The notes beneath the pieces were generated by a model, which was not told the origin of the DNA, did not search any database, and was given only the letters and a program-made list of their open reading frames with translations. Positions 1-27,901 of a stretch of 43,514 nt of DNA are shown here, piece by piece (position 1 is the first letter of the stretch; every line of letters starts with the position of its first letter). The DNA is from an uncultured Clostridia bacterium. Its GTDB lineage: Bacteria; Bacillota; Clostridia; TANB77; CAG-508. Both the position numbers and the translations under genes were made by a program. The stretch lies in assembly GCA_944391895.1 (NCBI GenBank), contig CALXVF010000001.1, forward strand, positions 1 through 43,514, read 5' to 3'.

Positions 1-179
1 TTTGCAAATTCTTTTGCAACTTTTTTCCCATATTCTGTAGGCTTTCTTGTTCCCACAATTGCTAATGCTTGTGTATTTAATAGTTCTTCATTTCCTTCCA
101 CATATAATATTTGTGGCGAATTTGGTATCTTTAGTAAGTTTTTTGGATAATTACTATCCTCTTTTTTGATTAATTTCAT
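1..179 (-). CDS. dprA: DNA-processing protein DprA/Smf, N-terminal fragment (gene runs off the left edge)
   Basis: Own reverse-strand translation from the ATG at 179..177: MKLIKKEDSNYPKNLLKIPNSPQILYVEGNEELLNTQALAIVGTRKPTEYGKKVAKEFA. The YPxxL..P..LY..GN..LL..AIVGtR..t.YG pattern is typical of DprA. AAGGAG lies a few nt upstream. Confidence 0.6.
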   Translation of the reverse strand, partial: MKLIKKEDSNYPKNLLKIPNSPQILYVEGNEELLNTQALAIVGTRKPTEYGKKVAKEFA

Positions 180-276
180 TTTTCTCCTTTTGGGAAATTT
201 TTAAGAATTAAATTTTAAATAAAAATATTTTGAATGAATAAAAATATTATAATACAGTTTCCATTATTTGTAAAGT

Positions 277-309
277 AAAAGTCGTCGACAGATTTCGACA
301 ACTTTTTTT
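277..309 (-). terminator. Rho-independent terminator candidate closing the radical-SAM operon
   Basis: AAAAGTCGTCGA-cagatt-TCGACAACTTTT forms a 12-bp stem. Its single mismatch becomes a G-U pair in the minus-sense RNA. A T-run follows in the minus sense. It lies between the stop of 493..1500 and the start of dprA. Confidence 0.5.
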
Positions 310-411
310 AATATTATATCTTATAGATTTTCAATAATACAACTGAATTTTTATTATATAGAAATATGATTCATAAAACAGACAAAATCAGGTATTAATT
401 TCATTATCATT

Positions 412-444
412 AAACAGTGAATATAATAATTATACTCACTGTTT
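412..444. other. AT-rich 14-bp inverted repeat (hairpin) about 50 nt downstream of the last operon gene
   Basis: AAACAGTGAATATA-ataat-TATACTCACTGTTT with one mismatch. There is no clean T-run in the minus sense, so its function is unclear. Confidence 0.3.
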
Positions 445-492
445 TAATTTTTACATTTGCTTTTTTCTGAATTGCCATAATCACATTATCTT

Positions 493-1500
493 CTATTCTT
501 CTTTATAATGACAATTCATAATTCCACAACCATAAGTACATTGACTCATCTTTTCTCTTAACTCTTTATTTTTATTCCATATTTCTTTTAATGTCTCTGT
601 TCTAACATTTCCACATGATTTTACTCCTAATCTTGCCATATCAAAACAAAACTGAGTTTCACCATCTTCATTAATGATAAATAATGTATTCATTGCTTCG
701 CATTTTTTAAATGGCAATTTAACTGGATTTTTAAAATAAGTCAATATGTCTATAAACTGTTCTTCTGTTTGAGTTATTATTTTATGTGCACTTTTTAATT
801 TTAAAATTTCACTTATTCCTTTTTCAGCCTCTTCATATGTAGGATATAAAGAACTTTCTTCTTTCCAGTTATCTTTATATTCAGATGAAAAATTTGGTTG
901 TATTGCTTGAAAAAATATAGCATCAAAACCTATTTTCTCAAAAAATTCTATTATTCCTTTAATATTATTTAAATTATTTTTTCCTAATAAACTACTTGCA
1001 TAAATTTTTGTTTTATTATTAATATTATTTCTTAATTCTATAATATCTTTAGCAAATTTAGTTGTTAATTGAAAAGCGTCTTCATTTCCTCTAATATTAT
1101 TATGTATTTTTTCATCATTACTATCTATAGAAATAAGAATAAATTCTAGATCTAAATCTAAAATTCTCTTAAGTTCTTCTTTTTCTATTAATGTTCCATT
1201 AGTAGTAACACTTGCCCTTAAACCAACTTTCTTACATTCTTCTGCCAATTTATAAAATATATCTTTTCTGGCAAATGGTTCTCCTCCTGTAAGGCTTATT
1301 CTAATATCTTTATTCCATTTTTTTATATCATGTATTATTTTCAATTTTTCTTCTAAAGTAAGTGCATTATTCCTAATAGTAGAATCGTTTTTATGATAAT
1401 CACATTGAATACATTTTAAATTACAGGTTTCAGTAGTTCTTAGGAAAACCGTGCTAGGATTAGTTGTTAATTTTATCATACATTTCCTCATTTCTCTCAT
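493..1500 (-). CDS. Radical SAM enzyme with C-terminal SPASM/twitch-like Cys cluster
   Basis: CNLKCIQC (CX3CX2C) near the N-terminus; GGEPF SAM-binding motif; C-terminal C-x13-G-x4-C followed by QCTYGCGIMNC. ATGA start/stop overlap with the upstream gene. Confidence 0.85.
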   Translation of the reverse strand: MREMRKCMIKLTTNPSTVFLRTTETCNLKCIQCDYHKNDSTIRNNALTLEEKLKIIHDIKKWNKDIRISLTGGEPFARKDIFYKLAEECKKVGLRASVTTNGTLIEKEELKRILDLDLEFILISIDSNDEKIHNNIRGNEDAFQLTTKFAKDIIELRNNINNKTKIYASSLLGKNNLNNIKGIIEFFEKIGFDAIFFQAIQPNFSSEYKDNWKEESSLYPTYEEAEKGISEILKLKSAHKIITQTEEQFIDILTYFKNPVKLPFKKCEAMNTLFIINEDGETQFCFDMARLGVKSCGNVRTETLKEIWNKNKELREKMSQCTYGCGIMNCHYKEE

Positions 1501-2792
1501 AAATTTTTTCTATATTCTTCCGTTCCATATATTAGGTCTAAAAAAAGTGATTCATCCATTCCATCTGGCATATAATTAATATATGTCATTTTATCCATAG
1601 AATTAATATCCTCTATTGTAAGAGTTTCATCTTTGTCTTTTTGTGTTAATATTTGTCTAGGTGAATATGCTGCAATTCTTATTTCTTTTGCTCCTACTTT
1701 TTTCAAAAAACTCAAAGACTCTTTAAGATTACTTCTTGTTTGTCCTTTTATTCCCATCATTAAAAGTGGCTTTATTTCTACATTATATTTGTTAGCAATA
1801 TTAAACATATTTTCCACACTTTTTTTATAATGATTTAAATCTTTAAATTTTTTTAACTCTCTATTAGCTTCAATATCTAAAGTTTCAATTCCTACAGCTA
1901 TTTTCTTACAGCCTGATTTTGACATTTTACAAATCATTTTTTCATTTTGCAACTTATCTGTTCTTGATGTCGTTACCCAGTTAATGTTTTCACCAGTTTC
2001 AATAAGTTTATCACAAAAATCTTCAACCCATTTTTCATCATATGTAAATGTTGGTGAGAATAATTTATATGTTTCTACTTTATTTTTATTTTGTACCATA
2101 TATTCGACTAATTCATTAATATCTTTTCTTCTATCATCTTTATCAAATGTTTTTACGGCTAAACAAAACTTACAATTATATGGACATCCTCGTGATGCAG
2201 ATATCGTTACTTCATTATGTCTCAATTGCTTATATAAATCAATATCTATTAAATTGCTGTCTAAATCTGGGAAATTCCATTCTGTAAAATCCTCTCCATT
2301 ACATCTAGTAGCATTAATCCATTTATTATCTATTTTTAATGTTATTCCTGGTATGCTATTATCTAAAAAATCTTCATTTTTTAAATATTTTATATAATTA
2401 CATATTGCAACTTCCCAGTCTCCACTTTCTATTATCGCATCTAAATCTCTCAGATTTTTCTTAATAAAATTTGGGAACATACAAGTAGCATCTCCATATG
2501 CTAATAATTTTGTTTGTTTTGATATTTTGCTTACTAGTGGAACTAATTTTAGTAAAGAATTTACAGTTTCTATTCGTATTAAAAAACAAATTAAATCATA
2601 TTTATTTTTAGCAATTTCTTCCAATATTTCGGCATGAGAAATTTTAGGACTTAAGCAGTCCATAATCTTTACTTCATTTCCGTTTTTTGATACATAAGTA
2701 GCTATTTCCGCTAAATATGCCCATCTTTTTGGAATTTTAGTATTCACTGGCATATAAAATGTTTCTTCTGCTTCTACAAATAAAACTTTCAT
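1497..2792 (-). CDS. B12-binding-domain (class B) radical SAM enzyme
   Basis: N-terminal Rossmann-like cobalamin-binding-type region followed by SRGCPYNCKFC (CX3CX2C). I placed the start at the 4th codon of the track ORF (ATG at 2792) because GGGGG lies 9 nt upstream. The ORF is open to 2801. Confidence 0.85.
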   Translation of the reverse strand: MKVLFVEAEETFYMPVNTKIPKRWAYLAEIATYVSKNGNEVKIMDCLSPKISHAEILEEIAKNKYDLICFLIRIETVNSLLKLVPLVSKISKQTKLLAYGDATCMFPNFIKKNLRDLDAIIESGDWEVAICNYIKYLKNEDFLDNSIPGITLKIDNKWINATRCNGEDFTEWNFPDLDSNLIDIDLYKQLRHNEVTISASRGCPYNCKFCLAVKTFDKDDRRKDINELVEYMVQNKNKVETYKLFSPTFTYDEKWVEDFCDKLIETGENINWVTTSRTDKLQNEKMICKMSKSGCKKIAVGIETLDIEANRELKKFKDLNHYKKSVENMFNIANKYNVEIKPLLMMGIKGQTRSNLKESLSFLKKVGAKEIRIAAYSPRQILTQKDKDETLTIEDINSMDKMTYINYMPDGMDESLFLDLIYGTEEYRKNL

Positions 2793-2818
2793 TACATTCA
2801 TCCCCCTTTTTATAACAC

Positions 2819-4414
2819 TTATTTAATTCTTTCAAATAATGGTAAAATATTATCTAATATAATTTCTTTTTGTATTTCTACTGGTTTCCATTTAGTAATA
2901 TCTATATTCAAATATTTACTTAAACTTTCAGAAGAATCTGGCATAACTGGTTCAAGTAGATTAGATAAATTTGCAATAATATAAGTACAATTATATATAA
3001 CTTTATTGAATTTCTCCATATTTTCTTTATAAAGAATCCATGGTTTTTCATCATCATAATATTTATTTCCAAACTCGATTAAATTAATTATTTCTTGTAT
3101 TGCATTTCTAAATTCTAATTTTTCTATATAATCACTGACTGCACTATAAGTTTTTTCAACTTTATCTTTTATGTCTTTTTCTACTGTATTTATCATTATT
3201 TTTTCTAATCCTTTAAAATTAAGTGTTCTATTAACAAAATTGCCATACTTATTAACTAAATCAGTATTATGAACAGTTTTAAAATCTTCTAATGAAAAAT
3301 TACTATCCTTCTTTTCTGGGCCATTACTAATAAAATAATACCTTATAGAATCTATATTATATTCATTTGCTAATTCTAATATTGTAATTCCGTTTCCCTT
3401 ACTTTTAGAAATTTTTTCATCATTGATATTTAGATATTCACAAGATACCATTTTATCCGGTAATTTCATATTATCTTCCATTGCTAACAATAATCCTGGA
3501 AGTATTATACTATGAAAAATAATGTTGTCTTTTCCATGAACCATATACATCAATGTTTGTTCATTTTTCCAATAATTTTCCCAATTCAAATTATTTTCTT
3601 CACAATATCTCATTGTAGTTGTTATATATCCTAGAACTGCCTCTATCCAAACATACATTTTTTTGTTTTCATAGCCTTTTATTGGGACATCTACTCCCCA
3701 ATCTAAATCTCTTGTAACTGCTCTATCTATTAATCCTTGCTTTAAATATTTCAAAGTTTCATTCTGAGAGTTTTTTCTCCAATTAGCATGATTTTGCTCA
3801 TAATATTCTTCAATCTTATTTTGTAGTTTAGTTAGCATTAAATAAAGATTTTTATTTTTTTTCTCTATTACTGTTGTTCCGCATTCTTGACATTTTGCTT
3901 TTTTCAAATCTTCATCATTTGGATTATATCCACAGTCGCACTCTTCACCTTTTGTTTCTTTTCCACAATTCGGACACTGCAATATTAGTTCCCTATCTGC
4001 TAAGAATTTATTGCATTTTGGACAATATGGTTGTAAATCTTCCTTCTCAACTATATATCCATTATCATAAATTCTTTTAAAAATTTTTTTAACTTCCTCT
4101 TTGTGATATTCCTCTTCTGTCTTCGTATACAAATTGTAGGAAAAATTCATTTTATTAAATGCATTCTTAAATTCCATATGATATTGTTCACATATTTCTT
4201 TTGGACTCTTTTTCTCTTTTTTTGCCCTTATAGTAATTGGCGTTCCATGACAGTCTGTTCCTGAAACATATATAACATTATCTCCTAGTTTTCTATGATA
4301 TCTAGCCAAAAAATCTCCTGGCAATAATGCAACTAAATGTCCTAAATGTAAAGAACTATTTGCATATGGCCATGCACCACCTATTATTATGTTTCTACCC
4401 ATAATGATTTTCAT
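2819..4414 (-). CDS. metG: Methionine--tRNA ligase, short form (531 aa, no C-terminal tRNA-binding/dimerisation domain), embedded in the operon
   Basis: HIGH motif as HLGH (AWPYANSSLHLGHL); KMSKS motif as KISKS; connective-peptide zinc knuckles CPKC..CPNC..CDC..CQEC. The start overlaps the upstream HAD gene by 20 nt. Confidence 0.9.
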   Translation of the reverse strand: MKIIMGRNIIIGGAWPYANSSLHLGHLVALLPGDFLARYHRKLGDNVIYVSGTDCHGTPITIRAKKEKKSPKEICEQYHMEFKNAFNKMNFSYNLYTKTEEEYHKEEVKKIFKRIYDNGYIVEKEDLQPYCPKCNKFLADRELILQCPNCGKETKGEECDCGYNPNDEDLKKAKCQECGTTVIEKKNKNLYLMLTKLQNKIEEYYEQNHANWRKNSQNETLKYLKQGLIDRAVTRDLDWGVDVPIKGYENKKMYVWIEAVLGYITTTMRYCEENNLNWENYWKNEQTLMYMVHGKDNIIFHSIILPGLLLAMEDNMKLPDKMVSCEYLNINDEKISKSKGNGITILELANEYNIDSIRYYFISNGPEKKDSNFSLEDFKTVHNTDLVNKYGNFVNRTLNFKGLEKIMINTVEKDIKDKVEKTYSAVSDYIEKLEFRNAIQEIINLIEFGNKYYDDEKPWILYKENMEKFNKVIYNCTYIIANLSNLLEPVMPDSSESLSKYLNIDITKWKPVEIQKEIILDNILPLFERIK

Positions 4415-5036
4415 TCCTTTCTTTTAATTCCTCTATTAAATTTCTATTAGCCTTATTCCAATTAGAATATCCTCCATCAAATAATATTGTATCAAATCCA
4501 ATTTTTTTAGCAGATTCGATATTATTAACTTCATCATCAATAAATAACACATTTTGATTTTGTATTTTTTGCATAATCTTTATAAAATATTTTTCCTTAT
4601 CTGCCTTCTTGGTCATTCTATCAAAAACAGATATGAAAACCAATTCATTATCACAAAAATCCAAAAAATCTTTATAAAATGTTTTCACTATTGATAATCC
4701 TATTTGACTTAAATCTGAAATAATACCTATTCTATATTGTTTGCTTAAGACATCTTTTATATAAGATAATAATTCTTCATTTCTAACCACTTCAATATTT
4801 TTTATGTCATACTTAATATTATTATCTGTAACTTTTACAATTTTAAACATTTTTTCCCAAGTATCTTCTAATGATATGTTTCCATAAAATGAATCATTTA
4901 ATATCTTTGATGTTTCTTTTCTAAATTCTTCTATTGAAATATTATTATTTCTATTTTCAAAAATTTTATTTAATATTTCACCATGTATTGGTTTTAATAT
5001 TACGTTTCCTATATCCCATAATATTATATCTTTCAT
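4395..5036 (-). CDS. HAD-IA family phosphatase, YihX-like
   Basis: Motif I WDIGNV (compare E. coli YihX FDLGNV), motif II ISDLS, motif IV FIDDEVNNIESAKKIGF (compare YihX FFDDNADNIEGA). GGTGGA SD upstream. Confidence 0.75.
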   Translation of the reverse strand: MKDIILWDIGNVILKPIHGEILNKIFENRNNNISIEEFRKETSKILNDSFYGNISLEDTWEKMFKIVKVTDNNIKYDIKNIEVVRNEELLSYIKDVLSKQYRIGIISDLSQIGLSIVKTFYKDFLDFCDNELVFISVFDRMTKKADKEKYFIKIMQKIQNQNVLFIDDEVNNIESAKKIGFDTILFDGGYSNWNKANRNLIEELKERNENHYG

Positions 5037-5046
5037 TTTCCACCTA

Positions 5047-6852
5047 CTATCCTATGTGATAACTTTTTAGTTTATCAACTAATATTTTGTTAAATTCTCT
5101 CCTATTAACAGAAATTCTAATCCATTCTCCATTAATTTCAGAATATGAATTTGATAATTCTCTTATATATATTCCATCTTCTTGTAACTTTTCTGCTAAA
5201 TCTACAGCTGTAATTCCTCTTTTTATTTTACAAATTATAAAATTAGTAATACTAGGCTTTACTTCTAACCAATCAAATTTATTTAATTCATCTTCTAATT
5301 CTTTAACAAGTAAATGTATATCTTTTCTTGTTTTTTCGACAAAATCCTTATCTTTCAAACAAATAGGAAATATTACTTGTGACATTGTATTTAATGAATA
5401 TGGTATTTGCCATTTCTTATATTTTTCAATAACCTCACTATTAGAAATTAATGCTCCAACTCTTAATCCTGCAACACTAAATAATTTAGATAATGAATAT
5501 ACTATTGAAACATTTTTTAATTCTTCTACATTTTTACTTAACGTTTCATCAAAGAAATTATCATGAAGTAATAGATGTGATTCATCTATTATAAAATGGC
5601 AATTTTTATTTTCTTTTATAATTTTTAATAAATCCTTTATATATATATAAGATGATGTAGGATTATTAGGATTACAAATAAACATCATTGTTGATTCTTT
5701 AGCTGCTCTATCAAGCTGTTCTAAATCATAGTCTAACTCTTTATTTAATGTAATTTTCTTGTATTTTTTTCCTAATACTTCTAATCCTGCTGAATACCCC
5801 CAATATGTTGGAGCTATTACTGTAGCTTTTGAACTATCTAGGAATCTTGGCAACGCATATATAGCTTCAAGAGAGCCGTTTGCTATCGCTATATTTTCTA
5901 TATTCACTTTAAAAAATTCTGCTAAGTCATTGTTAATTTCAATATTTTTATAATCTGAATAAACATTAATATATCCTGAACATTGTTTTAGTGCCTGTTG
6001 AACCTTCTCTGTGGGACCAAGTGGATTAGCATTTTCCGAGAAATCATAACCTCCCATTTTTGGATATTCTTTTAACTCCATATTAACATTTTCAAAATTA
6101 TTTGAATCCGCAATTAATATAGATTTCTTTATCCATGTTTCTTCACAACAATATTTATTTTGGTTTTTTATCATATTTCCCATTTCTACATTTTTTTCAA
6201 AATGTTCTTTCGTATATTTCAATAAATGCTCATATAAATTTTTATATTCTTTTTTATATCCTAAAAAATCTTCTCCTTCTGCTCCAGTAAAAGGATTTTT
6301 GCATAAATTATCTACAAATTGACTTATTGTTACAAATCTATTAGCTGTGTATGAAAACATGACTCTTATTATTACATCCCATGCTCTATCTCTATAAGTT
6401 TCTAATATTTTTTTATTTCCAGATATAACAATTGAATTAGCTGTTAAAACATATAATAACAATCTATATTTCACATTAATAGAAGATAAAAATTCTTCTG
6501 ACTTTTCTATTTCTGGAATATAAAATTTTCTTCTAAAAATCTGGAAAGGGGGTTTCATTAACATTTTCTCTATATCAAAATAAGAATAAATTGCTTTACT
6601 TTCAAATGGTACTTCATTGTCAATTTTCATATTATTATCAAAATGAAATTTAACAGTTATATCTTTGATTTTCTTCTCATCTTCTCTATTATAATTATGC
6701 AATATTGTACATACATCTAAATCACTATTCTCAACGCCTTCAACTGAAGAACCATATAACAATACTATAGGTTCTTCATCTGGGAAAATTTTATTCACTT
6801 CTTGTGCATATTTTTTAGATAATTCTTCTATTTTTTTAGTTAAATTCGCCAT
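5047..6852 (-). CDS. Fusion protein: N-terminal Pol-beta-type nucleotidyltransferase plus C-terminal class I/II PLP aminotransferase (HisC/CobD-like)
   Basis: N-terminal LLYGSSVEGVENSDLDV (GS...DxD NTase signature). C-terminal half has NPNNPTS and the PLP-lysine motif YSLSKLFSVAGLRVG. AAAGGAG SD upstream. Confidence 0.75.
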   Translation of the reverse strand: MANLTKKIEELSKKYAQEVNKIFPDEEPIVLLYGSSVEGVENSDLDVCTILHNYNREDEKKIKDITVKFHFDNNMKIDNEVPFESKAIYSYFDIEKMLMKPPFQIFRRKFYIPEIEKSEEFLSSINVKYRLLLYVLTANSIVISGNKKILETYRDRAWDVIIRVMFSYTANRFVTISQFVDNLCKNPFTGAEGEDFLGYKKEYKNLYEHLLKYTKEHFEKNVEMGNMIKNQNKYCCEETWIKKSILIADSNNFENVNMELKEYPKMGGYDFSENANPLGPTEKVQQALKQCSGYINVYSDYKNIEINNDLAEFFKVNIENIAIANGSLEAIYALPRFLDSSKATVIAPTYWGYSAGLEVLGKKYKKITLNKELDYDLEQLDRAAKESTMMFICNPNNPTSSYIYIKDLLKIIKENKNCHFIIDESHLLLHDNFFDETLSKNVEELKNVSIVYSLSKLFSVAGLRVGALISNSEVIEKYKKWQIPYSLNTMSQVIFPICLKDKDFVEKTRKDIHLLVKELEDELNKFDWLEVKPSITNFIICKIKRGITAVDLAEKLQEDGIYIRELSNSYSEINGEWIRISVNRREFNKILVDKLKSYHIG

Positions 6853-6855
6853 ATA

Positions 6856-7557
6856 TTAAACTCCTTTCACAAAATTTAATAAATCTTCTAATTTATATCC
6901 TGCTCCTTTTATTCCTTGAGGTGTAAATTTAGGGTTTATTATTATATTTTTTAAGTTTTTATATTTGCTTTTCCATGTAATATTTGTATCATTAACTCTA
7001 CAATTACCTTCAAGATATTTTTCTAATTCTTGACCATTTGCACTTATTATTCCTGTTATATTATCATTCTCTACTGGTTTAATATTTATATTATCGTTTG
7101 CTTTTGCAATATAAACAAATAATTGCAAACATGAGTATTTTTTTCCAGTAATGTTAATATCATCTCTTAATGGCAACTTATATTCAACTATATATAATGG
7201 ATTATAATTTAAAACATCTTGGAATTTAATGGTTGAATTGTTTTCTGTATTCTTTACAATTATCGTATTTTCTATATTAGGAAATTTCAAATCTTTTATA
7301 TCTATATTAACTTCCTCTTTTAATTCTCTTTCTAATGTTTTTTCTATTTTTTCTTCCTTTTCTCTTGTTCCACCAATACCTGTAAACTTAATAATAGGTT
7401 CATTTTTTATATATTTCCAAGATTTTTCCTTGGCCAAAGCAAAATAGATTCTGTTATTTTTTATTAGTAAAACACTAGCACCTTGGTTAATTTGAAATTC
7501 CGAATCAATATATTGATTATAAAATTTATTTGCATACTCGTTAATATCTAGACACAA
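6856..7557 (-). CDS. Nudix-like hydrolase (divergent), TTG start
   Basis: G-TREKE-E-KIEKTLE-RELKEEVNI fits the Nudix box Gx5Ex7REUxEExGU except for G to N at the last G. TTG start 9 nt after AAGGAGGG. Confidence 0.45.
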   Translation of the reverse strand: MCLDINEYANKFYNQYIDSEFQINQGASVLLIKNNRIYFALAKEKSWKYIKNEPIIKFTGIGGTREKEEKIEKTLERELKEEVNIDIKDLKFPNIENTIIVKNTENNSTIKFQDVLNYNPLYIVEYKLPLRDDINITGKKYSCLQLFVYIAKANDNINIKPVENDNITGIISANGQELEKYLEGNCRVNDTNITWKSKYKNLKNIIINPKFTPQGIKGAGYKLEDLLNFVKGV

Positions 7558-7804
7558 CGGGCTTTCCCTCCTTGTATAATATATTTATGGTTTACCTCAG
7601 CATTGATATTACAAAATTCGAATACTTTTTGTCTGCAGAAAATCTTATTCAGTTTTTGTTTGAACATAATTACCAAATCGCTTTCATTAATCCTATTCAA
7701 ACTGACCATATGAAAATTTCTAAACGATACCTCTACTTACATTTGCTATGCAATCAATATAGTTGTTTTTCTTATTATATACAATAATGAAACTTTCCAC
7801 ATTT

Positions 7805-7835
7805 AACAGTTTTCAAAATAATTTTTGAAACTGTT
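7805..7835. promoter_or_regulatory. AT-rich palindrome in the 331-nt internal gap of the operon (weak terminator, attenuator or operator candidate)
   Basis: AACAGTTT(T)CAAAA-taat-TTTTGAAACTGTT: 13 bp of pairing with one bulge, about 55 nt after the decarboxylase stop, no T-run. Confidence 0.3.
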
Positions 7836-7888
7836 ATTAGTCATCCAAATTTTTATCTATTTAAAATACTTAAAAATTTTTAATAATT

Positions 7889-9367
7889 CTATTGAGAATT
7901 AATATTTAGTCTATTTTTTATTATATTTTTGATATATTCAATTAAATCATCTTGATTTTCTTCTGTTATATTATCATTACCTGACATATATCTTAACGGA
8001 TATAAATTTTTTCCTTGTTTTATCCTTCCGTTATCGTCATTAATCGAAAATTGATGCAAGAAGAACTTCCCATCCTCATCCATTATTCTTTTTATTGTTT
8101 TATTTATCTCATTAATTTTATCAACAGAGTAGCCACTCGGTGCATACATAAACATAACTGAATTTATATCAACATCATTTAGTACTATAAACCCATTTTT
8201 TATTAATTTTTCAGCAAATTCTTTAGCCATTTCATGTCTTTTTTCTATTATCTTTCCTATATCTTTTACTCCAATATTTTTTATTACACACCATACTTTA
8301 AATGATAACCAACTTTTTGATCCGATAAATGGTGTTACTTGCCCAAATGCAAATGGTTCTTGCATAATTAAGTCTGATGTTGTAGTTATTAATTTTAAGT
8401 TTTCACTATTTTTTAAAAGTAACGCACTAACTGTATATGGTGTCATTAAAACTTTATGTGGATCTGTAGAAATGCTATCAAATTTTTCTATGCCGTTAAT
8501 TTTTTCTTTCATTTTTTCACTAAAACCTAATGAAAAGCCATGACAAGCATCTGCATGAAGCCAAATATTTTCATCATATTTTTTTACAATATCAGCTACT
8601 TTTTCTAAATTATCTATTGTCATACTTCGACTATCACCAACATATGCAACAACAGCCATAACTTTTCCAGCATTTTCTTTAATTGTTTTCTCTAATTCTA
8701 TTAAATCATACTTATAATTTTGTGTAGGAACTTCTAATACATTATCTCCACATCCTATCCACATCAAACTACTTTTTATACTATAATGACCTATTCCCTT
8801 TGGGATAATAACTTTAAACTCTTCTGGTCTTTTGATTCCTTCTTTCATAGTATTCTTTTTATGATTTTCTCTTGCTAATAACATTGCTATTGCATTACTA
8901 CCTGTTCCACCATAAGTTATAATTCCACCAACATCCCATATATTTTTTATATCCTTTTTATTTCTATATCCTACAATTCTTCTTAGCCATTGTATCAATG
9001 CAATTTCTATATATGTACCTATCGGCGCACAAAAACTAGCATTTATTAAATTTTGTTGTAAAAAATCCGTTAATAACGCACCCGAAATTCCTGCAATAGA
9101 ATTACCTGCATCTGGGAAACCCATAAAATTATTTGATGAGAAATTAGTACAATATGGTAAAATATCATCCTTTATTTCTTTAATAATATCATCCATGCTT
9201 TTTCCTTCTTCTGGTAATTGGAACAGTTGATTTTGAATTTTTTCAAAATCAACTGTTTTAAGTACAACCTCGTTTTTTAATTTGAACTCTATTCCTAAAT
9301 TGATAACTTCATTAAATATTCTTTCGGCATAATCTCTATTTTTCCTATTTAATACATTTTTATCCAT
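7889..9367 (-). CDS. Group II pyridoxal-phosphate-dependent amino-acid decarboxylase
   Basis: GGTGSNAIAMLLARE, HADACHGFSL and the PLP-lysine motif STDPHKVLMTPY (S-x-D-x-HK). Length 492 aa. Confidence 0.85.
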   Translation of the reverse strand: MDKNVLNRKNRDYAERIFNEVINLGIEFKLKNEVVLKTVDFEKIQNQLFQLPEEGKSMDDIIKEIKDDILPYCTNFSSNNFMGFPDAGNSIAGISGALLTDFLQQNLINASFCAPIGTYIEIALIQWLRRIVGYRNKKDIKNIWDVGGIITYGGTGSNAIAMLLARENHKKNTMKEGIKRPEEFKVIIPKGIGHYSIKSSLMWIGCGDNVLEVPTQNYKYDLIELEKTIKENAGKVMAVVAYVGDSRSMTIDNLEKVADIVKKYDENIWLHADACHGFSLGFSEKMKEKINGIEKFDSISTDPHKVLMTPYTVSALLLKNSENLKLITTTSDLIMQEPFAFGQVTPFIGSKSWLSFKVWCVIKNIGVKDIGKIIEKRHEMAKEFAEKLIKNGFIVLNDVDINSVMFMYAPSGYSVDKINEINKTIKRIMDEDGKFFLHQFSINDDNGRIKQGKNLYPLRYMSGNDNITEENQDDLIEYIKNIIKNRLNINSQ

Positions 9368-9369
9368 AT

Positions 9370-10506
9370 TTACCCTTCCTTATTACATCTGTAACATTGA
9401 TGATTATTCATTAAGCACATTGGATCCTTTCCTAGAATATCATTAGTTGCAATATATGCATCTGTTCTACATCCTCCACAAATAGAATTATATTTACAGT
9501 CAGAAAAATGTTCTCTTAATTTTTTCATTTCTTCTGATTGATTTAAAATATCTATTAATTTTTTTTCTTTTACATTTCCAAGTTTCACACCTGTATATCC
9601 TAATAATGGACATGGGCTAACATTTCCTTCATGATCTATTCCTACCCATTCAATTCCTGCGCTACATCCCCAATATCTTTTTAATCCATTTTTATCTGTT
9701 TTTGACACACTATTACAAGTTTGCAAATTTGGAATTAATGTATCTTGTTGTTCTACATCTTTTTTCATATATTCAGGTAATTGTTCATTATGTTTTTTTA
9801 TCTCTGATTCTATAATAAGAGCATATAATGGATCTTCTACCCTTATTCTTAAATTAGGTCTATTAATAGCTATATCAAAAATTTCTAATAATGCTTTTTT
9901 ATTTTCTTCTGGTGGCAAAGTTAGCCATTTATTATTCTCTCCTCTTCCCATAGGTCTAAACCTTTTAAAATTAATTACATCTGCACACATTTCACTTGCT
10001 AAGTCAACAAATTCTTTCAAATATTCTTTATTATAGTTTGTTATTGTCATATCAATTGTCACATAAATTCCAACATTTTTTAATCTTTTTGCAGCTAATT
10101 TGACTTTTTCTATTATATCTTTTCCTCCTCGAAAAGCGTCTTCTTTTTCAGGAATTGGATTACACACACTCATAGATACGCAATTCATTCCAACATCTTT
10201 TAACCTTTTTACATTTTCTTCTGTCATAAAAAGTCCGTTTGTACACATTGACATTTCTTTCTTGGCAATTTTTTTAGCTTCTTCTAAATATTCAAATAAG
10301 TTTGGACACATAAATGGTTCTCCACCAGAAATAAAAATCATATCAGGATTAATAGTTTTTATGGATTCGGCCATTTTTCTTATTTCGTCTTTTGATAATA
10401 TTTTTTCATCTCTAAACTCTGGCCCTGAATCTGGATAACAGTGTTTGCATTTTAAATTACAATCATTATTTATTATCCAAGAAACTGCTGCTATGTAATC
10501 AATCAT
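9370..10506 (-). CDS. Radical SAM enzyme with C-terminal SPASM domain (AhbD/NirJ/PqqE-like architecture)
   Basis: CNLKCKHC (CX3CX2C), SGGEPF, then C-terminal CSAG..G-NVSP-C ... CKYNSICGGCR ... DPMC. AAGGAGG SD upstream. Confidence 0.85.
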   Translation of the reverse strand: MIDYIAAVSWIINNDCNLKCKHCYPDSGPEFRDEKILSKDEIRKMAESIKTINPDMIFISGGEPFMCPNLFEYLEEAKKIAKKEMSMCTNGLFMTEENVKRLKDVGMNCVSMSVCNPIPEKEDAFRGGKDIIEKVKLAAKRLKNVGIYVTIDMTITNYNKEYLKEFVDLASEMCADVINFKRFRPMGRGENNKWLTLPPEENKKALLEIFDIAINRPNLRIRVEDPLYALIIESEIKKHNEQLPEYMKKDVEQQDTLIPNLQTCNSVSKTDKNGLKRYWGCSAGIEWVGIDHEGNVSPCPLLGYTGVKLGNVKEKKLIDILNQSEEMKKLREHFSDCKYNSICGGCRTDAYIATNDILGKDPMCLMNNHQCYRCNKEG

Positions 10507-10562
10507 AATTTTTCCTCCTTATTATTCAATTATCTCTATAATCTCTTATCTATCATGCTATT

Positions 10563-10591
10563 ATTATATCATTTTAGTTCTTATATGTAAA
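10563..10591 (-). promoter_or_regulatory. Sigma-A-type promoter candidate for the operon
   Basis: Minus sense reads TTTACA (10591..10586), a 17-nt spacer, then TGaTATAAT (extended -10, TATAAT at 10568..10563). It lies about 55 nt upstream of the ATG at 10506. Confidence 0.5.
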
Positions 10592-10627
10592 TAATTTTGA
10601 CGTTTTTTGACAATTTTTTCCGTTACG

Positions 10628-10646
10628 TCAAGTGAAAAGTTAAATG
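10628..10646. repeat. IS left terminal inverted repeat
   Basis: TCAAGTGAAAAGTTAAATG; its exact reverse complement is at 11624-11642. Confidence 0.75.
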
Positions 10647-10739
10647 CAATTCTGTAAATAGAAATTAGTCCTACATTTTTCTTTGTTGTACAACTTAATA
10701 TATATTTGCAAATGTTTTTGGTGGAATAGAGTATGAATT

Positions 10740-11514
10740 ATGATTGAAAAATGTAAGCAACTTACATTAAGTCAAAGAATTAAATTTGAAGAAATGTTAG
10801 ACCAAAAACACAGAGAATTTGAAATTGTTAATGAATTAGATAAAAGTCAATCCACTATTGCTAAAGAAGTCAATAAACATAAGAAGTTTAAGCCTCGCGG
10901 CCCTCTTAGAAATGACAATATGTACAATTGTAAATTTTTATTAATTGTGAAAAAAACCAAACTAAAAAAGCGTAAAGAGCCACAGAATTATGATGGAAGA
11001 ACATATTCCTATTCCCTTAACTACAAGGTTTTAAATCCTTATCTTCCTACTACTAAAATGGACACTGTATACAATAGTCAATCTGGCCCATATGTTCAAA
11101 CTTTTATATTTGAAAATGCTTGTTTTATGCTTGGCATACTATATATGGATAAAACTGCTGACTCTATGTCTACGACTTTAAGTATTTTTCAAGATATATT
11201 ATCTAATGAAGAATATAAAGAACTTTTTTCACTTTTACTTACAGATAGAGGTACTGAGTTTGGTAGAACTGACAATTTGAAATTAATATTGAAACAGGTG
11301 AAATTAGAAGTAAAATGTTCTACTGTGATTCGCTACAATCTAGTCAGAAACCTCATGTAGAAAATAATTATAACTTTATTAGATAAATTCAGTACTTAGA
11401 GAATCTTTAGGTAGTAAAACACCTTTTGAAGTATTGACTTTTATTTATGGTAAAAAAACACCAGATAAATTAAATATTCTTTTACTAAAGTCAAATATTA
11501 TTTCCTTTTACTGA
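10740..11514 (+). pseudogene. IS30-family transposase pseudogene (three frame fragments)
   Basis: Fragment 1 has an HTH-like N-terminus (LTLSQRIKFEEML..STIAKEVNKH) and DDE-region remnants (MDTV...LLTDRGTEF). Fragment 2, in another frame, reads MFYCDSLQSSQKPHVENNYNFIR*. Fragment 3 reads ESLGSKTPFEVLTFIYGKKTPDKLNIL. Roughly 100 aa between the HTH and the catalytic core are missing. Confidence 0.7.
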
Positions 11515-14638: not shown

Positions 14639-15580
14639 TTAATACCATCCCTTTTTGCATGAATGATTCCATGCTGCTGATGGGCTTCCATATCTTGATT
14701 TAATATAATTTAGTCCCCAGTTGATTTGTGTTTTATAGTTTGTTAAATAGTCTGAACCAGCTGATGCCATTTTACTTGCAGGCAATGCTTGAGGTATTCC
14801 ATGTGCTCCTGAGCTTGAATTATGCGCTGCTGGGTTCCATCCACTTTCTTTATTCCATAGTTTTACTAAAGCTTGAAAGTCTGCATCAGACCATCCATAA
14901 TCAAAACATCTTTTTTCTGCATATGCTTGGTATTCTGCAACAGATCCTGTTACAATTCCACCTCTTGATGTAACTTGCTTTGTTCTAACTTCAACTATTT
15001 TATCTACTGGCTCTTTTATTACTTCTGATGAAATTTCTGTTTTTTCAATTTCTGTACCAGATTGATATCTTATTTTATATGTTACCCTTTTTAGACCATT
15101 AGATCCACTTTGTACTACTCTATTTTGAGTTGCATAACTTCCATTTGATACGTCTTTTGTTATTGTTTCAAAAGGTATTTCAACTTCTTCTGTTACTACT
15201 TTTTCTACAATTTGTGTATAGCTTGCTAATATTTCTTCTGCTGTCATATAAGAAGTGTCATCTGTTTGTTTTGCACCTTTTGTTATAGTAATTGTTTTAT
15301 TATCTGATAATTCTTCATCAATATTTGGTGTAACAGTTTCATCGTCTAATACAACAATATGATTTTCTGCTAAAATATCTGATATTTTTGTACTTGTTGT
15401 CATAACATCCATTTCGTATCCGCTTGAAAGTAATATTTTAACAGATGTAAGCTTTTGACTTGTAGCCATAACGCTCATCATACCAGCTAGTATTAAGAAA
15501 ATTATTGTTATTATGAAAATTTTCTTGAGCGAAATAGTTGCTTTCTCTTGCTTATTTTGTTTACTTATTCGTTTCCTCAT
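14639..15580 (-). CDS. YabE-like cell-wall protein: membrane anchor, DUF348, G5 domain, C-terminal lytic-transglycosylase-like (Apf-type) domain
   Basis: G5-type segment VEIPFETI..VVQSGSNGLKRVTYKIRYQSGTE. C-terminus LWNKESGWNPAAHNSSSGAHGIPQALPASKMASAGSDY..YGSP..AW. Start at the ATG at 15580 after AAAGGAGG. Confidence 0.7.
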   Translation of the reverse strand: MRKRISKQNKQEKATISLKKIFIITIIFLILAGMMSVMATSQKLTSVKILLSSGYEMDVMTTSTKISDILAENHIVVLDDETVTPNIDEELSDNKTITITKGAKQTDDTSYMTAEEILASYTQIVEKVVTEEVEIPFETITKDVSNGSYATQNRVVQSGSNGLKRVTYKIRYQSGTEIEKTEISSEVIKEPVDKIVEVRTKQVTSRGGIVTGSVAEYQAYAEKRCFDYGWSDADFQALVKLWNKESGWNPAAHNSSSGAHGIPQALPASKMASAGSDYLTNYKTQINWGLNYIKSRYGSPSAAWNHSCKKGWY

Positions 15581-15812
15581 AAAACCTCCTTTAAGTAACA
15601 CAAGTATTATTATAACATCTTTTATTAAATATGTCAAATTAGGTCTTAATTTCCAGTTTTGCTTACGGCTCAAAGGCTTTTATTTTCAAGTTACATAATA
15701 TTTTTGTTTTAATCACTGAAAACAAGCCATATTATATTTTTTACTTTTTTACTTGTTAATTTTTTCATATTATGATATATTAATAATATATAATATGAAA
15801 AAGGAGGATATT

Positions 15813-16370
15813 ATGGGCTGGATTATTTTAGCAATTGTAGTTGTAATTGCTATTATACTTGTTGTCATATACAATAATTTAGTTACATTAAGACAACGTG
15901 TACAAAACGCATGGAGTCAAATAGATGTTCAACTACAAAGAAGATTTGATTTAATTCCTAATTTAGTTGAGACTGTAAAAGGATATATGAAACATGAAGA
16001 GTCAACTCTTACTAAAGTAACTGATTTACGTTCTTCATGGGCAAAAGCATCAACTGTAGAAGAAAAGGCTAATCTAGATAATGCTCTTTCTGATACTTTA
16101 AAAACTATTATGGCTGTTGCTGAGAATTATCCTGATTTAAAAGCTAATCAATCATTTAATGCTATGCAAGCAGAACTTTCTGAAACAGAGAATAAAATTG
16201 CTTATTCAAGACAGTTTTATAATGATACAGTTACAATGTATAATACTAAATTAGAGACATTTCCTTCTAATTTAGTAGCAAATATGTTTGGATTCAAAGC
16301 ATCTACATTATTTAATGTAGATAATGAAGAAGCTAAAAAAGCTGTAAAAGTAGATTTTGGAAATAACTAA
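15813..16370 (+). CDS. lemA: LemA family protein
   Basis: N-terminal TM segment, then [42 protein letters not shown] at 15813 follows AAGGAGG. Confidence 0.85.
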
Positions 16371-16375
16371 TTTAA

Positions 16376-16477
16376 AAATTCACCAATTTTTTTCTATTTC
16401 AAGCGAGCGAAAGCTTGGAGTAAGCTGTGCGCCACGTCCTCGTGGCGTGAAATAAGAAAAAAATATTGGTGAATTTT
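16376..16477. repeat. Copy A of a GC-core element nested in a long AT-rich hairpin; fills the lemA/tatD convergent spacer
   Basis: The arms AAAATTCACCAATTTTTTTCTATTTCA and TGAAATAAGAAAAAAATATTGGTGAATTTT pair with two bulges. The core at 16402-16447 contains the box GCGAAAGCTTGGAG (16407-16420), a 5-bp AGCTT/AAGCT hairpin and a 7-bp CGCCACG-tcct-CGTGGCG hairpin. Confidence 0.6.
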
Positions 16478-16478
16478 A

Positions 16479-17258
16479 TTATTTAGCTATTTGAAAAACT
16501 CTTTCTGCATTTTCATATGTTAATCTTGCAATTTTTTCTTCACTCATTCCTTTGACTGAAGCTATTTTTTTCACAATATATTTTAAATTTATTGAATTAT
16601 TTGTTGTACCTCTAACAGGTTCAGGTGCTAAATATGGACTATCTGTTTCTATAAGCATTCTATCTGTCGGTACCATTTGTATTATTTCATCAGCATTTTT
16701 TGAATTTTTAAATGTAACTGGTCCTGCCATAGAAATATAATACCCAAGTTTAAGTGCTTCTTTTACTAATTCTCTATTTAATGGACAACAGTGGAAAATT
16801 CCTTTATTTTTTACTGTTTTTTCTTTAAGCATTGTAATTGTATCCATCACTGCATCTCTAGTATGAATTACAATCGGTAGTTCATATTTATTAGCTATGT
16901 CTATTTGCTTCGAGAATGCCTCATATTGGATTTTTTTATCTATATCATAATGATAGTCAAATCCTATCTCTCCAACCGCCAAAATCTTTCCTGAGTTCAA
17001 ATTGTCCATAATAATTTTGTCTATCTCTTCTATGTCTTGTTGCCAGTCTTCACCTAAATCATTTGGAGATATTCCTGCTGTTGTATATATAAATGGATAT
17101 TTTTTTGATAATTCTAGGTTTATTTTTGTTCCTTCTAAACTATATCCGGCACTAACAATTCTTGTAACACCTTCATTATATACTTTATTTATGATATCGT
17201 CTCTTTCTTCATCAAAACGATAACTATCATAGTGTGCATGTGAATCAAAATATTCCAT
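16479..17258 (-). CDS. tatD: TatD family metal-dependent DNase/hydrolase
   Basis: N-terminal FDSHAHYD, EIGFDYHY, VIHTRDA and ETDSPYL motifs. Confidence 0.9.
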   Translation of the reverse strand: MEYFDSHAHYDSYRFDEERDDIINKVYNEGVTRIVSAGYSLEGTKINLELSKKYPFIYTTAGISPNDLGEDWQQDIEEIDKIIMDNLNSGKILAVGEIGFDYHYDIDKKIQYEAFSKQIDIANKYELPIVIHTRDAVMDTITMLKEKTVKNKGIFHCCPLNRELVKEALKLGYYISMAGPVTFKNSKNADEIIQMVPTDRMLIETDSPYLAPEPVRGTTNNSINLKYIVKKIASVKGMSEEKIARLTYENAERVFQIAK

Positions 17259-27887: not shown

Positions 27888-27901
27888 ATTCTCCCTCCCT
27901 T

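Follow-up and report, generated by a model that had tools for sequence, protein, structure and literature searches.

A widespread gene module unites a Pol-beta nucleotidyltransferase, two PLP enzymes and a methionyl-tRNA synthetase in an eight-gene clostridial operon

We analyzed a 43,514-nt stretch of contig CALXVF010000001.1 (hereafter, the window), in which eight genes, all on the minus strand, form one operon containing a widespread module with a four-part core: a Pol-beta-type nucleotidyltransferase (NTase), a CobD/HisC-type pyridoxal phosphate (PLP) enzyme, a group II PLP-dependent decarboxylase and a complete methionyl-tRNA synthetase (MetRS). Three further kinds of enzyme recur beside this core: nucleotide hydrolases, phosphatase-type enzymes and methyltransferase-type radical S-adenosylmethionine (SAM) enzymes. 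The four core components co-localize in at least 12 of approximately 15 distinct loci, spanning Clostridia, Endomicrobia, Anaerolineales and bacteria of the candidate phyla radiation (CPR), both Microgenomates-type and code-25; furthermore, the NTase is joined in one polypeptide to each of the other core enzymes in some lineage, which provides Rosetta-stone evidence for one pathway. We consider it very probable that the eight-gene set constitutes a single pathway with the MetRS as an integral member.

A four-component core across distant genomes

The core and extended-core components are located in the window as follows.

6067..6852, minus strand: gene 4, N-terminal domain (~260 aa), Pol-beta-type nucleotidyltransferase with a helical subdomain; hub of the module
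5047..6066, minus strand: gene 4, C-terminal domain (340 aa), CobD/HisC-type fold-type I PLP enzyme (Aminotran_1_2, 146 bits); core
7889..9367, minus strand: gene 2, group II PLP-dependent amino-acid decarboxylase, 492 aa (Pyridoxal_deC, 150 bits); core
2819..4414, minus strand: gene 6, complete methionyl-tRNA synthetase, 527–531 aa, without a C-terminal tRNA_bind domain, overlapping gene 5; core
6856..7557, minus strand: gene 3, divergent Nudix hydrolase, 233 aa, TTG start (NUDIX, PF00293, 23.6 bits against a cut-off of 21.1); extended core
4395..5036, minus strand: gene 5, HAD-fold protein, 213 aa, with an atypical motif I, D-x-G-N-V (sub-threshold HAD matches); extended core
1497..2801, minus strand: gene 7, class B-like radical SAM enzyme with a putative B12-binding domain, 431–434 aa; extended core

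Protein families were assigned by Pfam and NCBIfam profile searches with curated cut-offs, and loci were compared through a tblastn matrix with the eight window proteins. The neighborhoods compared were those of Cellulosilyticum sp. (L007), metagenome-assembled genomes of Endomicrobia (L008), Anaerolineales (L010/L011) and Clostridiales (L091, L092, L098), locus L093, and a CPR contig that uses genetic code 25 (L094). The decarboxylase and NTase/PLP genes are adjacent in all loci, with gene 2 orthologues (42–77% identical) adjoining the NTase in every one. Nudix-like, HAD-like and B12-radical-SAM genes accompany this core in L007, L008, L010/L011, L091, L092 and L098, and a MetRS lies within the module in the window, L008, L010/L011, L091 (two copies), L092, L094, L098 (two copies), L101–L104 and L105/L106. 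Gene order and orientation vary by locus, with at least nine different arrangements among the MetRS-bearing loci. A preliminary description of this DNA had named a lack of co-localization in other genomes as grounds for abandoning the idea of a common system, and the homologues were found to co-occur across distant genomes; it had also regarded the MetRS as merely embedded in the operon, a view that has to be given up, as this gene belongs to the quartet with the most consistent linkage and, in CPR bacteria, forms one polypeptide with the NTase.

The fusions were investigated across the NTase family. In groundwater CPR contigs L102–L104, the module has shrunk to a CobD/HisC-like gene, a decarboxylase, a standalone NTase and a MetRS, and a single 778-aa polypeptide (L102:10001-12337) carries an NTase domain at residues 10–77 (PF01909/PF18765) and a MetRS domain at residues 238–633 (tRNA-synt_1g, 452 bits). 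Locus L105 (10001-12304) likewise encodes one NTase-MetRS polypeptide, the hosts being Microgenomates-like CPR groundwater bacteria, and such fusions fall into nine clusters at 90% identity. The MetRS part of the CPR fusions is 60–72% identical to annotated CPR MetRSs, which places it with the local housekeeping enzymes. Of the 150 top-ranking NTase representatives, 128 stand alone, 15 carry a CobD/HisC-like domain in the same chain, four a decarboxylase and two to three a MetRS; in the NTase-decarboxylase fusions (P0346, P0388, P0414, P0377), the decarboxylase part is 38–55% identical to gene 2. A GNAT gene overlaps the NTase-MetRS gene in CPR bacteria, its weak best matches being the antimetabolite-resistance protein ArsN1 (53 bits) and phosphinothricin (PPT) acetyltransferase.

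The CPR locus L105 is homologous to the window in the core only (decarboxylase 57%, aminotransferase-like domain 33%, NTase 32%, MetRS 39% identical). The place of the window Nudix protein is taken there by a type I nucleotide pyrophosphatase/phosphodiesterase and three NUDIX genes, that of the HAD-like protein by a His_Phos_1 phosphatase, and that of the B12-type class B enzyme by a ChuW/HutW-like class C radical SAM enzyme (364 bits); further genes encode a GNAT, an Amidohydro_2 protein and a protein with a kinase-like motif, the last read by eye. Judged by protein family, these non-orthologous analogues support nucleotide-linked, phosphate-bearing intermediates and a radical methylation step as probable features of the pathway.

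These data also bear on chance or syntenic juxtaposition of unrelated enzymes. Several assignments are weak (the Nudix match at 23.6 bits, HAD and B12-binding matches below cut-off), and a 331-nt gap splits the block, as would be expected of unrelated neighbors; against this, the same families co-occur across phyla, shuffled and fused, and the usually single metG of a 1–4 Mb genome would lie within 10 kb of a given gene in about 1% of cases, compared with the at least 12 of approximately 15 loci observed. Chance juxtaposition is excluded.

Several variant clusters (L091:16213-19232, L008:3736-6184, L092:13915-16212, L093:798-12100) additionally contain genes for an acyl-AMP ligase, a carrier protein, a ketoreductase, alpha/beta-hydrolases, glycosyltransferases, ABC transporters and a nonribosomal peptide synthetase (NRPS) with a reductase domain, which suggests further elaboration and export of the core product in some lineages. 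In the code-25 contig (L094:1-16237), 28 in-frame TGA codons of the MetRS gene are read as Gly, in HLGH among other motifs, and decarboxylase, NTase, MetRS and NTase-aminotransferase genes are still present. Disrupted natural variants of the operon were also seen in metagenomes: the B12 radical SAM gene is broken into 288- and 142-aa parts in L004 (9565-10861), and the last radical SAM gene of L001 (15294-16456) is cut by a discontinuity of approximately 100 nt.

Enzymes and layout of the operon

Gene 4 (5047-6852, minus strand) encodes a 601-aa fusion with approximately 20 full-length relatives, down to 42% identity. Its N-terminal region matched no Pfam family above cut-off, giving a weak match to the MTPAP palm alone; remoter members of the family match PF01909/PF18765 directly, and the family alignment contains an invariant Y-G-S...S-D-x-D signature together with a third acidic pair (D78/E80). 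An AlphaFold2 model built with the family alignment reached a predicted local distance difference test score (pLDDT) of 91 and a predicted template modeling (TM) score of 0.90. Foldseek comparison of the model with the PDB returned weak matches only (best E = 0.03, TM-score at most 0.36 on the query), all of them to Pol-beta-type proteins: the AMPylator DrrA, the MNT antitoxin MntA, the aminoglycoside adenylyltransferase AadA and terminal uridylyltransferases. The domain represents a new divergent family of Pol-beta NTases with a helical subdomain, comprising 426 representative clusters at E ≤ 0.001 and 159 at E ≤ 1e-30 in an exhaustive profile search.

The C-terminal domain of gene 4 remains below both relevant equivalog cut-offs (hisC, TIGR01141, 200.9 bits against 276.55; CobD, TIGR01140, 196.2 against 290.55), and its closest PDB matches are HisC (3FFH, 105 bits) and CobD (1LC5, 86 bits). 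The PLP lysine, Lys456 of an S-x-S-K motif, is invariant in the alignment. A scan of genome contigs with patterns derived from this domain retrieved mostly ordinary CobD genes, with true relatives only in L011 and L054. Gene 2 has no equivalog either, its nearest models being diaminobutyrate (DABA) decarboxylase (96 bits) and PanP (93 bits).

Among standalone proteins, those nearest to the PLP domain are annotated as threonine-phosphate decarboxylase, which favors a cell-surface head group as the product: the CobD-like enzyme, the decarboxylase and the NTase would make a nucleotide-activated amino alcohol, by analogy with CDP-ethanolamine or aminopropanol phosphate, as a decoration of a glycan or lipid, the MetRS link being unrelated to the chemistry. 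Glycosyltransferase, DegT aminotransferase and PIG-L deacetylase genes flank some variants, and CobD-type enzymes with HAD phosphatases make the amino-alcohol phosphates of the Campylobacter capsule. This explanation nevertheless fails to account for the NTase-MetRS fusion or for a linked MetRS at 12 or more loci, the window operon has neither a glycosyltransferase nor a membrane protein, and sugar- or alcohol-phosphate nucleotidylyltransferases are usually of other folds; we regard it as very improbable.

Gene 3 retains the Nudix box G-x5-E-x7-RE-x2-EE, which is invariant in all eight orthologues, with N for the last G in the window protein. Solved structures in the PDB match gene 3 at this box only, and a single-sequence structure model was unusable (pLDDT 32). 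Motifs I–IV of gene 5 are kept in all seven orthologues, and its motif I is D-x-G-N-V in each of them, without the second Asp of the D-x-D-x-T/V motif that characterizes HAD phosphomonoesterases.

The remaining features of the operon are listed here.

10563..10591, minus strand: promoter-like site, TTTACA-17 nt-TG-n-TATAAT, ~57 nt upstream of gene 1 (from sequence and promoter scan)
9370..10506, minus strand: gene 1, radical SAM/SPASM enzyme, 378 aa, AhbD/NirJ-like (Radical_SAM 90 bits, SPASM 41 bits); lineage-restricted accessory
7558..7888, minus strand: 331-nt non-coding spacer with a palindrome at 7804-7836; no ORF of note
493..1500, minus strand: gene 8, radical SAM/SPASM-twitch enzyme, 328–335 aa (Radical_SAM 73 bits, SPASM 30 bits); accessory
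277..445, minus strand: two candidate terminator hairpins (~400-445 and 277-309), past the last gene and before the dprA promoter and gene (from fold energies)

The three radical SAM enzymes differ in distribution. Gene 7 contains the CPYNCKFC motif (Radical_SAM 58 bits; B12-binding 21.2 bits against a cut-off of 32.1), its nearest NCBIfam models are BchE, ApyD, HpnJ and P-methyltransferases, with all class B models far below cut-off, and orthologues 41–74% identical were found in L007, L008, L010, L091, L092 and L098. Gene 1 lies below every equivalog cut-off (NirJ2, 167 bits against 500), with orthologues only in L091 (80%), L098 (84%) and L099 (75%); those of gene 8 were found only in L007 (47%) and L091 (64%). 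Modification of the product by three radical SAM enzymes had been proposed; the trio is not the conserved heart of the system, the B12-type enzyme alone being widespread and the SPASM enzymes occurring in close relatives (gene 1) or a few loci (gene 8). Two known types of radical SAM system were considered and rejected: a maturase system for peptides that are made on the ribosome and modified after translation (RiPPs), there being no conserved small or precursor open reading frame (ORF) and the sole gap ORFs sitting in the non-conserved, lineage-specific spacer; and a known anti-phage defense such as prokaryotic viperins, for which a PADLOC scan gave only partial radical-SAM-core matches to pVip (64–74 bits, N-terminal half) and faint matches to candidate families.

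The eight ORFs (9370-10506, 7889-9367, 6856-7557, 5047-6852, 4395-5036, 2819-4414, 1497-2801 and 493-1500) were found where they had been described, packed with junctions, from gene 1 to gene 8, of +2, +331, +3, +10, −20, +17 and −4 nt. The motifs reported earlier were each present in the translations and the family calls are backed by Pfam or NCBIfam matches, sub-threshold for HAD and B12-binding; for gene 7, the ORF stands, and the start earlier placed at 2792 is internal to it. The predicted promoter (10591-10563, 11 of 12 matches with an extended −10 element) is the top promoter-like site in positions 1-11500, and folding agreed with the predicted closing hairpin at 277-309 (−14.5 kcal/mol, z = −5.1), with UUUUACUUU coming right after it. 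A second hairpin, at ~400-445 just past gene 8 (−16.1 kcal/mol, z = −5.2), was found in addition.

Within the 331-nt spacer, the palindrome at 7804-7836 has 16-nt arms and forms a hairpin of −11.5 kcal/mol (z = −3.4). The spacer is lineage-specific, the decarboxylase and Nudix genes abutting or overlapping in L091 and L098, and may be an internal regulatory insertion; it also holds a TATAAT-like box. A mobile repeat was discarded as its origin, with no plasmid match, as was a riboswitch or other known RNA in the spacer or leader, with no Rfam match; an Rfam scan of the whole window at gathering thresholds likewise gave zero matches.

The flanks are those of an ordinary clostridial chromosome and encode a CwlD-type amidase, an AI-2E transporter, a YabE-like G5 protein, TatD, SpoIIE, a penicillin-binding protein and DprA. 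The dprA and cwlD borders described earlier were recovered by Pfam (DprA and Amidase_3) on the identical locus L001; this locus recurs in many metagenome assemblies, and the fusion protein is listed in 48 assembly-collection blocks. Past dprA, comM and a UPF0102 gene of the same organism, outside the window, a block of NUDIX, GNAT, HIT-family and GNAT genes was observed (L001:19559-21747); NUDIX, GNAT and HIT-family activities form the set that detoxifies aminoacyl-nucleotide antibiotics. At 22704-32722, two neighboring giant ORFs of 1727 and 1606 aa contain SdrD_B and DUF11 repeats and probably encode cell-surface adhesins.

In L098, the closest distinct relative, with a fusion protein 79% identical, a tmRNA gene, a large serine recombinase gene and a Mob_Pre relaxase gene precede the cluster with its two MetRS genes (L098:1528-16616); this cluster rides an integrative mobilizable element at ssrA. 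The in-operon MetRS is placed there as in the window, between the HAD-like and B12-radical-SAM genes, and its position on a mobile element identifies it as cargo rather than a host housekeeping gene. An ATP-grasp gene and a pyrimidine 5'-nucleotidase gene come after this cluster. Integrase genes were found near the L007 and L010 clusters, and the flanks differ in every relative. The proposal that the window operon is an acquired island gains from the L098 element and the variable flanks, and loses the decayed insertion sequence on which it had partly leaned: the ORF at 10740-11360 has no Pfam or NCBIfam match.

The role of the methionyl-tRNA synthetase

Gene 6 passes the metG domain model (TIGR00398, 476.6 bits against a cut-off of 336.35) and matches tRNA-synt_1g (PF09334) with 432 bits; in the PDB, the MetRS of P. 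abyssi is its best match (344 bits), human cytosolic MetRS is also close, and the E. coli enzyme follows. This affinity corresponds to the MetRS2 type in the terminology of a review of aminoacyl-tRNA synthetase (aaRS) inhibitors (PMC7916415). The HIGH (HLGH) and KMSKS (KISKS) signatures, the CxxC zinc knuckles and the anticodon-domain residues are kept in all module-linked MetRS copies. Three anticodon-domain residues, N392, R396 and W459, are invariant across seven linked copies, and we take them to correspond to anticodon-binding residues of E. coli MetRS.

The pocket motifs AWPY(A/V)N and (E/D)AV(L/I)GY (AWPYAN and EAVLGY in the window) stand in for the canonical ALPY and APIGY. We rejected this variant as a cluster-specific adaptation: it was found in all 120 of the closest homologues, in housekeeping-context copies and in most CPR MetRSs, and is the signature of a large clade of Clostridia and CPR MetRSs, module present or not. 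Ordinary, module-free chromosomal contexts hold variant MetRSs in L095 (80% identical to the window enzyme), L096 and L097. In the MetRS tree, the linked copies are not monophyletic; those of the window, L098 (a) and L091 (a) group with housekeeping-context copies, and those of L098 (b), L091 (b), L092 and L101 form one clade that is cluster-linked in four of four cases. T-box leaders were tried as a means of separating housekeeping from cluster MetRSs and proved uninformative, since the window and all of six other loci, related or of housekeeping type, lacked one. Neither the window nor any related cluster contains a tRNA gene, and with no tRNA in the clusters a pyrrolysine-type cassette (aaRS, radical SAM enzyme and dedicated tRNA) was rejected. 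The single MetRS gene of the window is the operon copy, approximately 12 kb from the tatD and YabE-like genes; at 14639-17258, TatD and a YabE-like G5/SLT protein are encoded, with no MetRS gene upstream of tatD. In Bacillus subtilis, the tatD and yabE genes follow metS.

Pol-beta NTases nucleotidylate hydroxyl groups. HisC and CobD use phosphate esters as substrates, and members of their family act beside the phosphate ester; the substrate of a group II decarboxylase has to be a free alpha-amino acid. MetRS forms Met-AMP and then moves methionine to the ribose of a 5'-phosphodiester-linked adenosine, and MetRS- and CysRS-like enzymes serve as non-ribosomal ligases that acylate non-tRNA acceptors (hydrazine synthetases, MshC). 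With this background, we tentatively favor, as possible rather than probable in its full form, a nucleotide-handle pathway in which the MetRS takes part, probably as methionyl donor. The NTase would place a nucleoside monophosphate (NMP), probably AMP, on a hydroxyl of an amino-acid-derived intermediate to give a phosphodiester handle; the fused CobD/HisC-type domain would transaminate or decarboxylate the carbon adjoining the handle, and the group II decarboxylase would make or remodel the amine part. The MetRS would supply activated methionine (Met-AMP or Met-tRNA(Met)) for joining to the nucleotide-linked intermediate, either at its amine or on the ribose of the AMP handle, the latter being similar to a tRNA 3' end. 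The B12 radical SAM enzyme would C-methylate, the two SPASM enzymes of this lineage may oxidize or cross-link, and the Nudix and atypical HAD enzymes would trim or remove nucleotide and phosphate. The product is likely a small metabolite that derives from a nucleotide and contains methionine, plausibly an antimetabolite directed at translation or a signal, carried on mobile islands in Clostridia. The idea of an NMP or phosphate handle had been advanced before; it now receives indirect support from the NTase fusions and from the recurring Nudix/pyrophosphatase and phosphatase analogues, and the product and its chemistry are still those suggested by the enzyme families.

Several points weigh against this scheme. 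A MetRS within 10 kb of the module is absent in L007 and L093, the only such loci, and each chemical step is derived from family chemistry. No recognizable aminoacyl-tRNA-dependent transferase is encoded in the window, and the group II decarboxylase cannot act on carboxyl-linked methionine, so that it fits only loosely into the sequence of steps. In the HAD-like protein, the Asp that serves phosphomonoesterases as general acid is missing. Finally, gene 6 looks like a normal tRNA-charging enzyme rather than a specialized ligase, because of its 80% identity to a MetRS from an ordinary context and the lack of a cluster-specific change in its active site.

The completeness of the linked MetRSs, which appear from their sequences to be functional synthetases, would also fit self-resistance: the product would inhibit MetRS (for example, as a non-hydrolyzable methionyl- or aminoalkyl-adenylate mimic made by the NTase and PLP enzymes), the MetRS copies would provide immunity or target dosage, and the Nudix protein, as well as the CPR GNAT, would add self-protection. 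L091 and L098 each hold two MetRS genes, both those of L098 being cargo of the recombinase/Mob element, the four-membered MetRS clade is cluster-linked throughout, ABC exporters are encoded in L092 and L093, and the GNAT gene overlapping the NTase-MetRS gene weakly resembles those of antimetabolite-resistance acetyltransferases. The aaRS genes of known antibiotic clusters mostly serve resistance (mupirocin, borrelidin, indolmycin, albomycin, agrocin 84). Fusion of an immunity gene to a biosynthetic NTase in one polypeptide would, however, be unusual, although MccE offers a precedent; moreover, the CPR fused MetRS is of the local housekeeping type, and no resistance-type substitutions separate cluster from housekeeping copies. 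We therefore consider self-resistance unlikely, though the main rival, and it does not exclude participation of the MetRS in handle chemistry, as the two are not mutually exclusive. No natural MetRS inhibitor is named in the examined passages of the aaRS-inhibitor review (PMC7916415), so such a compound would be new.

Fusion of the NTase to a housekeeping-type MetRS in small-genome CPR bacteria raises the further alternative that the NTase and PLP enzymes act on tRNA(Met) or on MetRS-made aminoacyl-tRNA, either through pre-translational conversion of a tRNA-bound precursor, as in SepRS/SepCysS and PSTK/SepSecS, or through modification of a CAU-anticodon tRNA with a decarboxylase-made amine, comparable to agmatine in agmatidine formation. 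The anticodon-binding determinants are kept in all linked MetRSs, Pol-beta NTases include tRNA-acting enzymes, and known tRNA-dependent conversions use PLP enzymes and activating phosphorylation. On the other side, the module is mobile and is rare, with 426 representative clusters of the NTase as opposed to many thousands of MetRS, and hence not a general translation function; the decarboxylase cannot act on an esterified amino acid, no cluster has a dedicated tRNA, and the exporter, acyl-carrier and NRPS genes of variant clusters point to a secreted small molecule. Both this translation-linked role, which we judge improbable, and the head-group role are less likely than methionyl donation within a nucleotide-handle pathway.

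Beyond that favored pathway, a bolder proposal is that the MetRS is a working part of an NTase-PLP-PLP-synthetase physical assembly, reflected in the fusions of two partners each that various lineages possess and conserved between CPR bacteria and gut Clostridia. The assembly would build or convert an intermediate, either tRNA-bound or a nucleotide linked to methionine, and would yield a MetRS-directed aminoacyl-nucleotide antimetabolite, the first natural one, or else a tRNA-dependent transformation of an amino acid. We treat this proposal as doubtful, and likewise give a minority but substantial chance to the notion that MetRS-coupled chemistry here is something new in kind. An essential translation enzyme fused to a nucleotidyltransferase, with two PLP enzymes in the operon, is not described in the searchable literature. 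If the MetRS is catalytic, the module would represent a new use of an aminoacyl-tRNA synthetase in small-molecule synthesis; if it is an immunity gene, the product would be a natural inhibitor of MetRS, a target already validated for antibacterials. At 10 kb and with one promoter, the operon is compact; it is also common in metagenomes and open to heterologous expression.

Comparison with known systems

A literature search for the gene combination found no described pathway, and the earlier statement that the set matches no known pathway holds for Pfam, NCBIfam, PADLOC, Rfam and the searchable literature. Of the systems that share parts of its logic, fosfomycin biosynthesis (Fom1 with its cytidylyltransferase domain, the class B radical SAM enzyme Fom3 and the hydrolase FomD) resembles the scheme proposed for the window operon in the NMP handle, the B12 radical SAM enzyme acting on a tethered intermediate and the final hydrolase, and the fusions and hydrolase analogues described above are consistent with such handle logic. 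In contrast to fosfomycin biosynthesis, the eight window proteins include no PEP mutase or other phosphonate enzyme and no NTase of the cytidylyltransferase fold, the NTase being of the Pol-beta type and the hydrolase a Nudix rather than a DUF402 protein; fosfomycin biosynthesis, in turn, has no counterpart of the two PLP enzymes and the MetRS.

Nucleoside antibiotic clusters combine comparable activities: that for albomycin contains a SerRS copy, that for puromycin the Nudix protein Pur7, the aminotransferase Pur4 and the phosphatase Pur3, and that for ascamycin an AlaRS-like gene. These pathways resemble the one proposed here in employing Nudix, phosphatase, aminotransferase and radical SAM enzymes on a nucleotide, together with an aaRS gene for acylation and/or immunity. 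They differ in that no sequence-level orthology was found, the Pol-beta hub, the group II decarboxylase and the use of a MetRS are new to the window, and their hosts are actinomycetes, whereas those of the module are anaerobic Firmicutes and CPR bacteria.

Microcin C is made by MccB, MccD and MccE, the last of which fuses a PLP decarboxylase to an immunity GNAT. The likeness would lie in a PLP decarboxylase acting on a nucleotide-amino-acid conjugate, in the precedent for a biosynthesis-immunity fusion and in the GNAT beside the synthetase in CPR loci; the ThiF-like MccB and the precursor peptide are missing here, the decarboxylase is of group II, and the synthetase is MetRS rather than the targeted AspRS. 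At the level of single enzymes, the C-terminal domain of gene 4 is closest to CobD and HisC, keeping the PLP lysine and the N-terminal ENxNPLGP motif, and differs from both in falling below the equivalog cut-offs, in its fusion to an NTase and in lying outside cobamide and histidine operons.

Systems that combine a MetRS paralogue with a cupin and a monooxygenase have, since their first description, been shown to be hydrazine-forming enzymes. In that description, the MetRS paralogue stands in a conserved operon with a cupin and a lysine N6-monooxygenase (Iyer/Aravind 2010, PMC2922099), and it provides a precedent for a non-ribosomal amino-acid ligase of the MetRS family; it is the one predicted system with a MetRS paralogue in the literature searched. 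We rejected it as a match, since the partners differ and the window has neither cupin nor monooxygenase; the window MetRS differs further in being complete, with an anticodon-binding domain and a score above the metG cut-off. By analogy, with the defining components of fosfomycin, puromycin, albomycin and microcin C biosynthesis absent, the operon would be a nucleotide-handle, aaRS-associated biosynthetic cluster whose logic is like that of these four systems.

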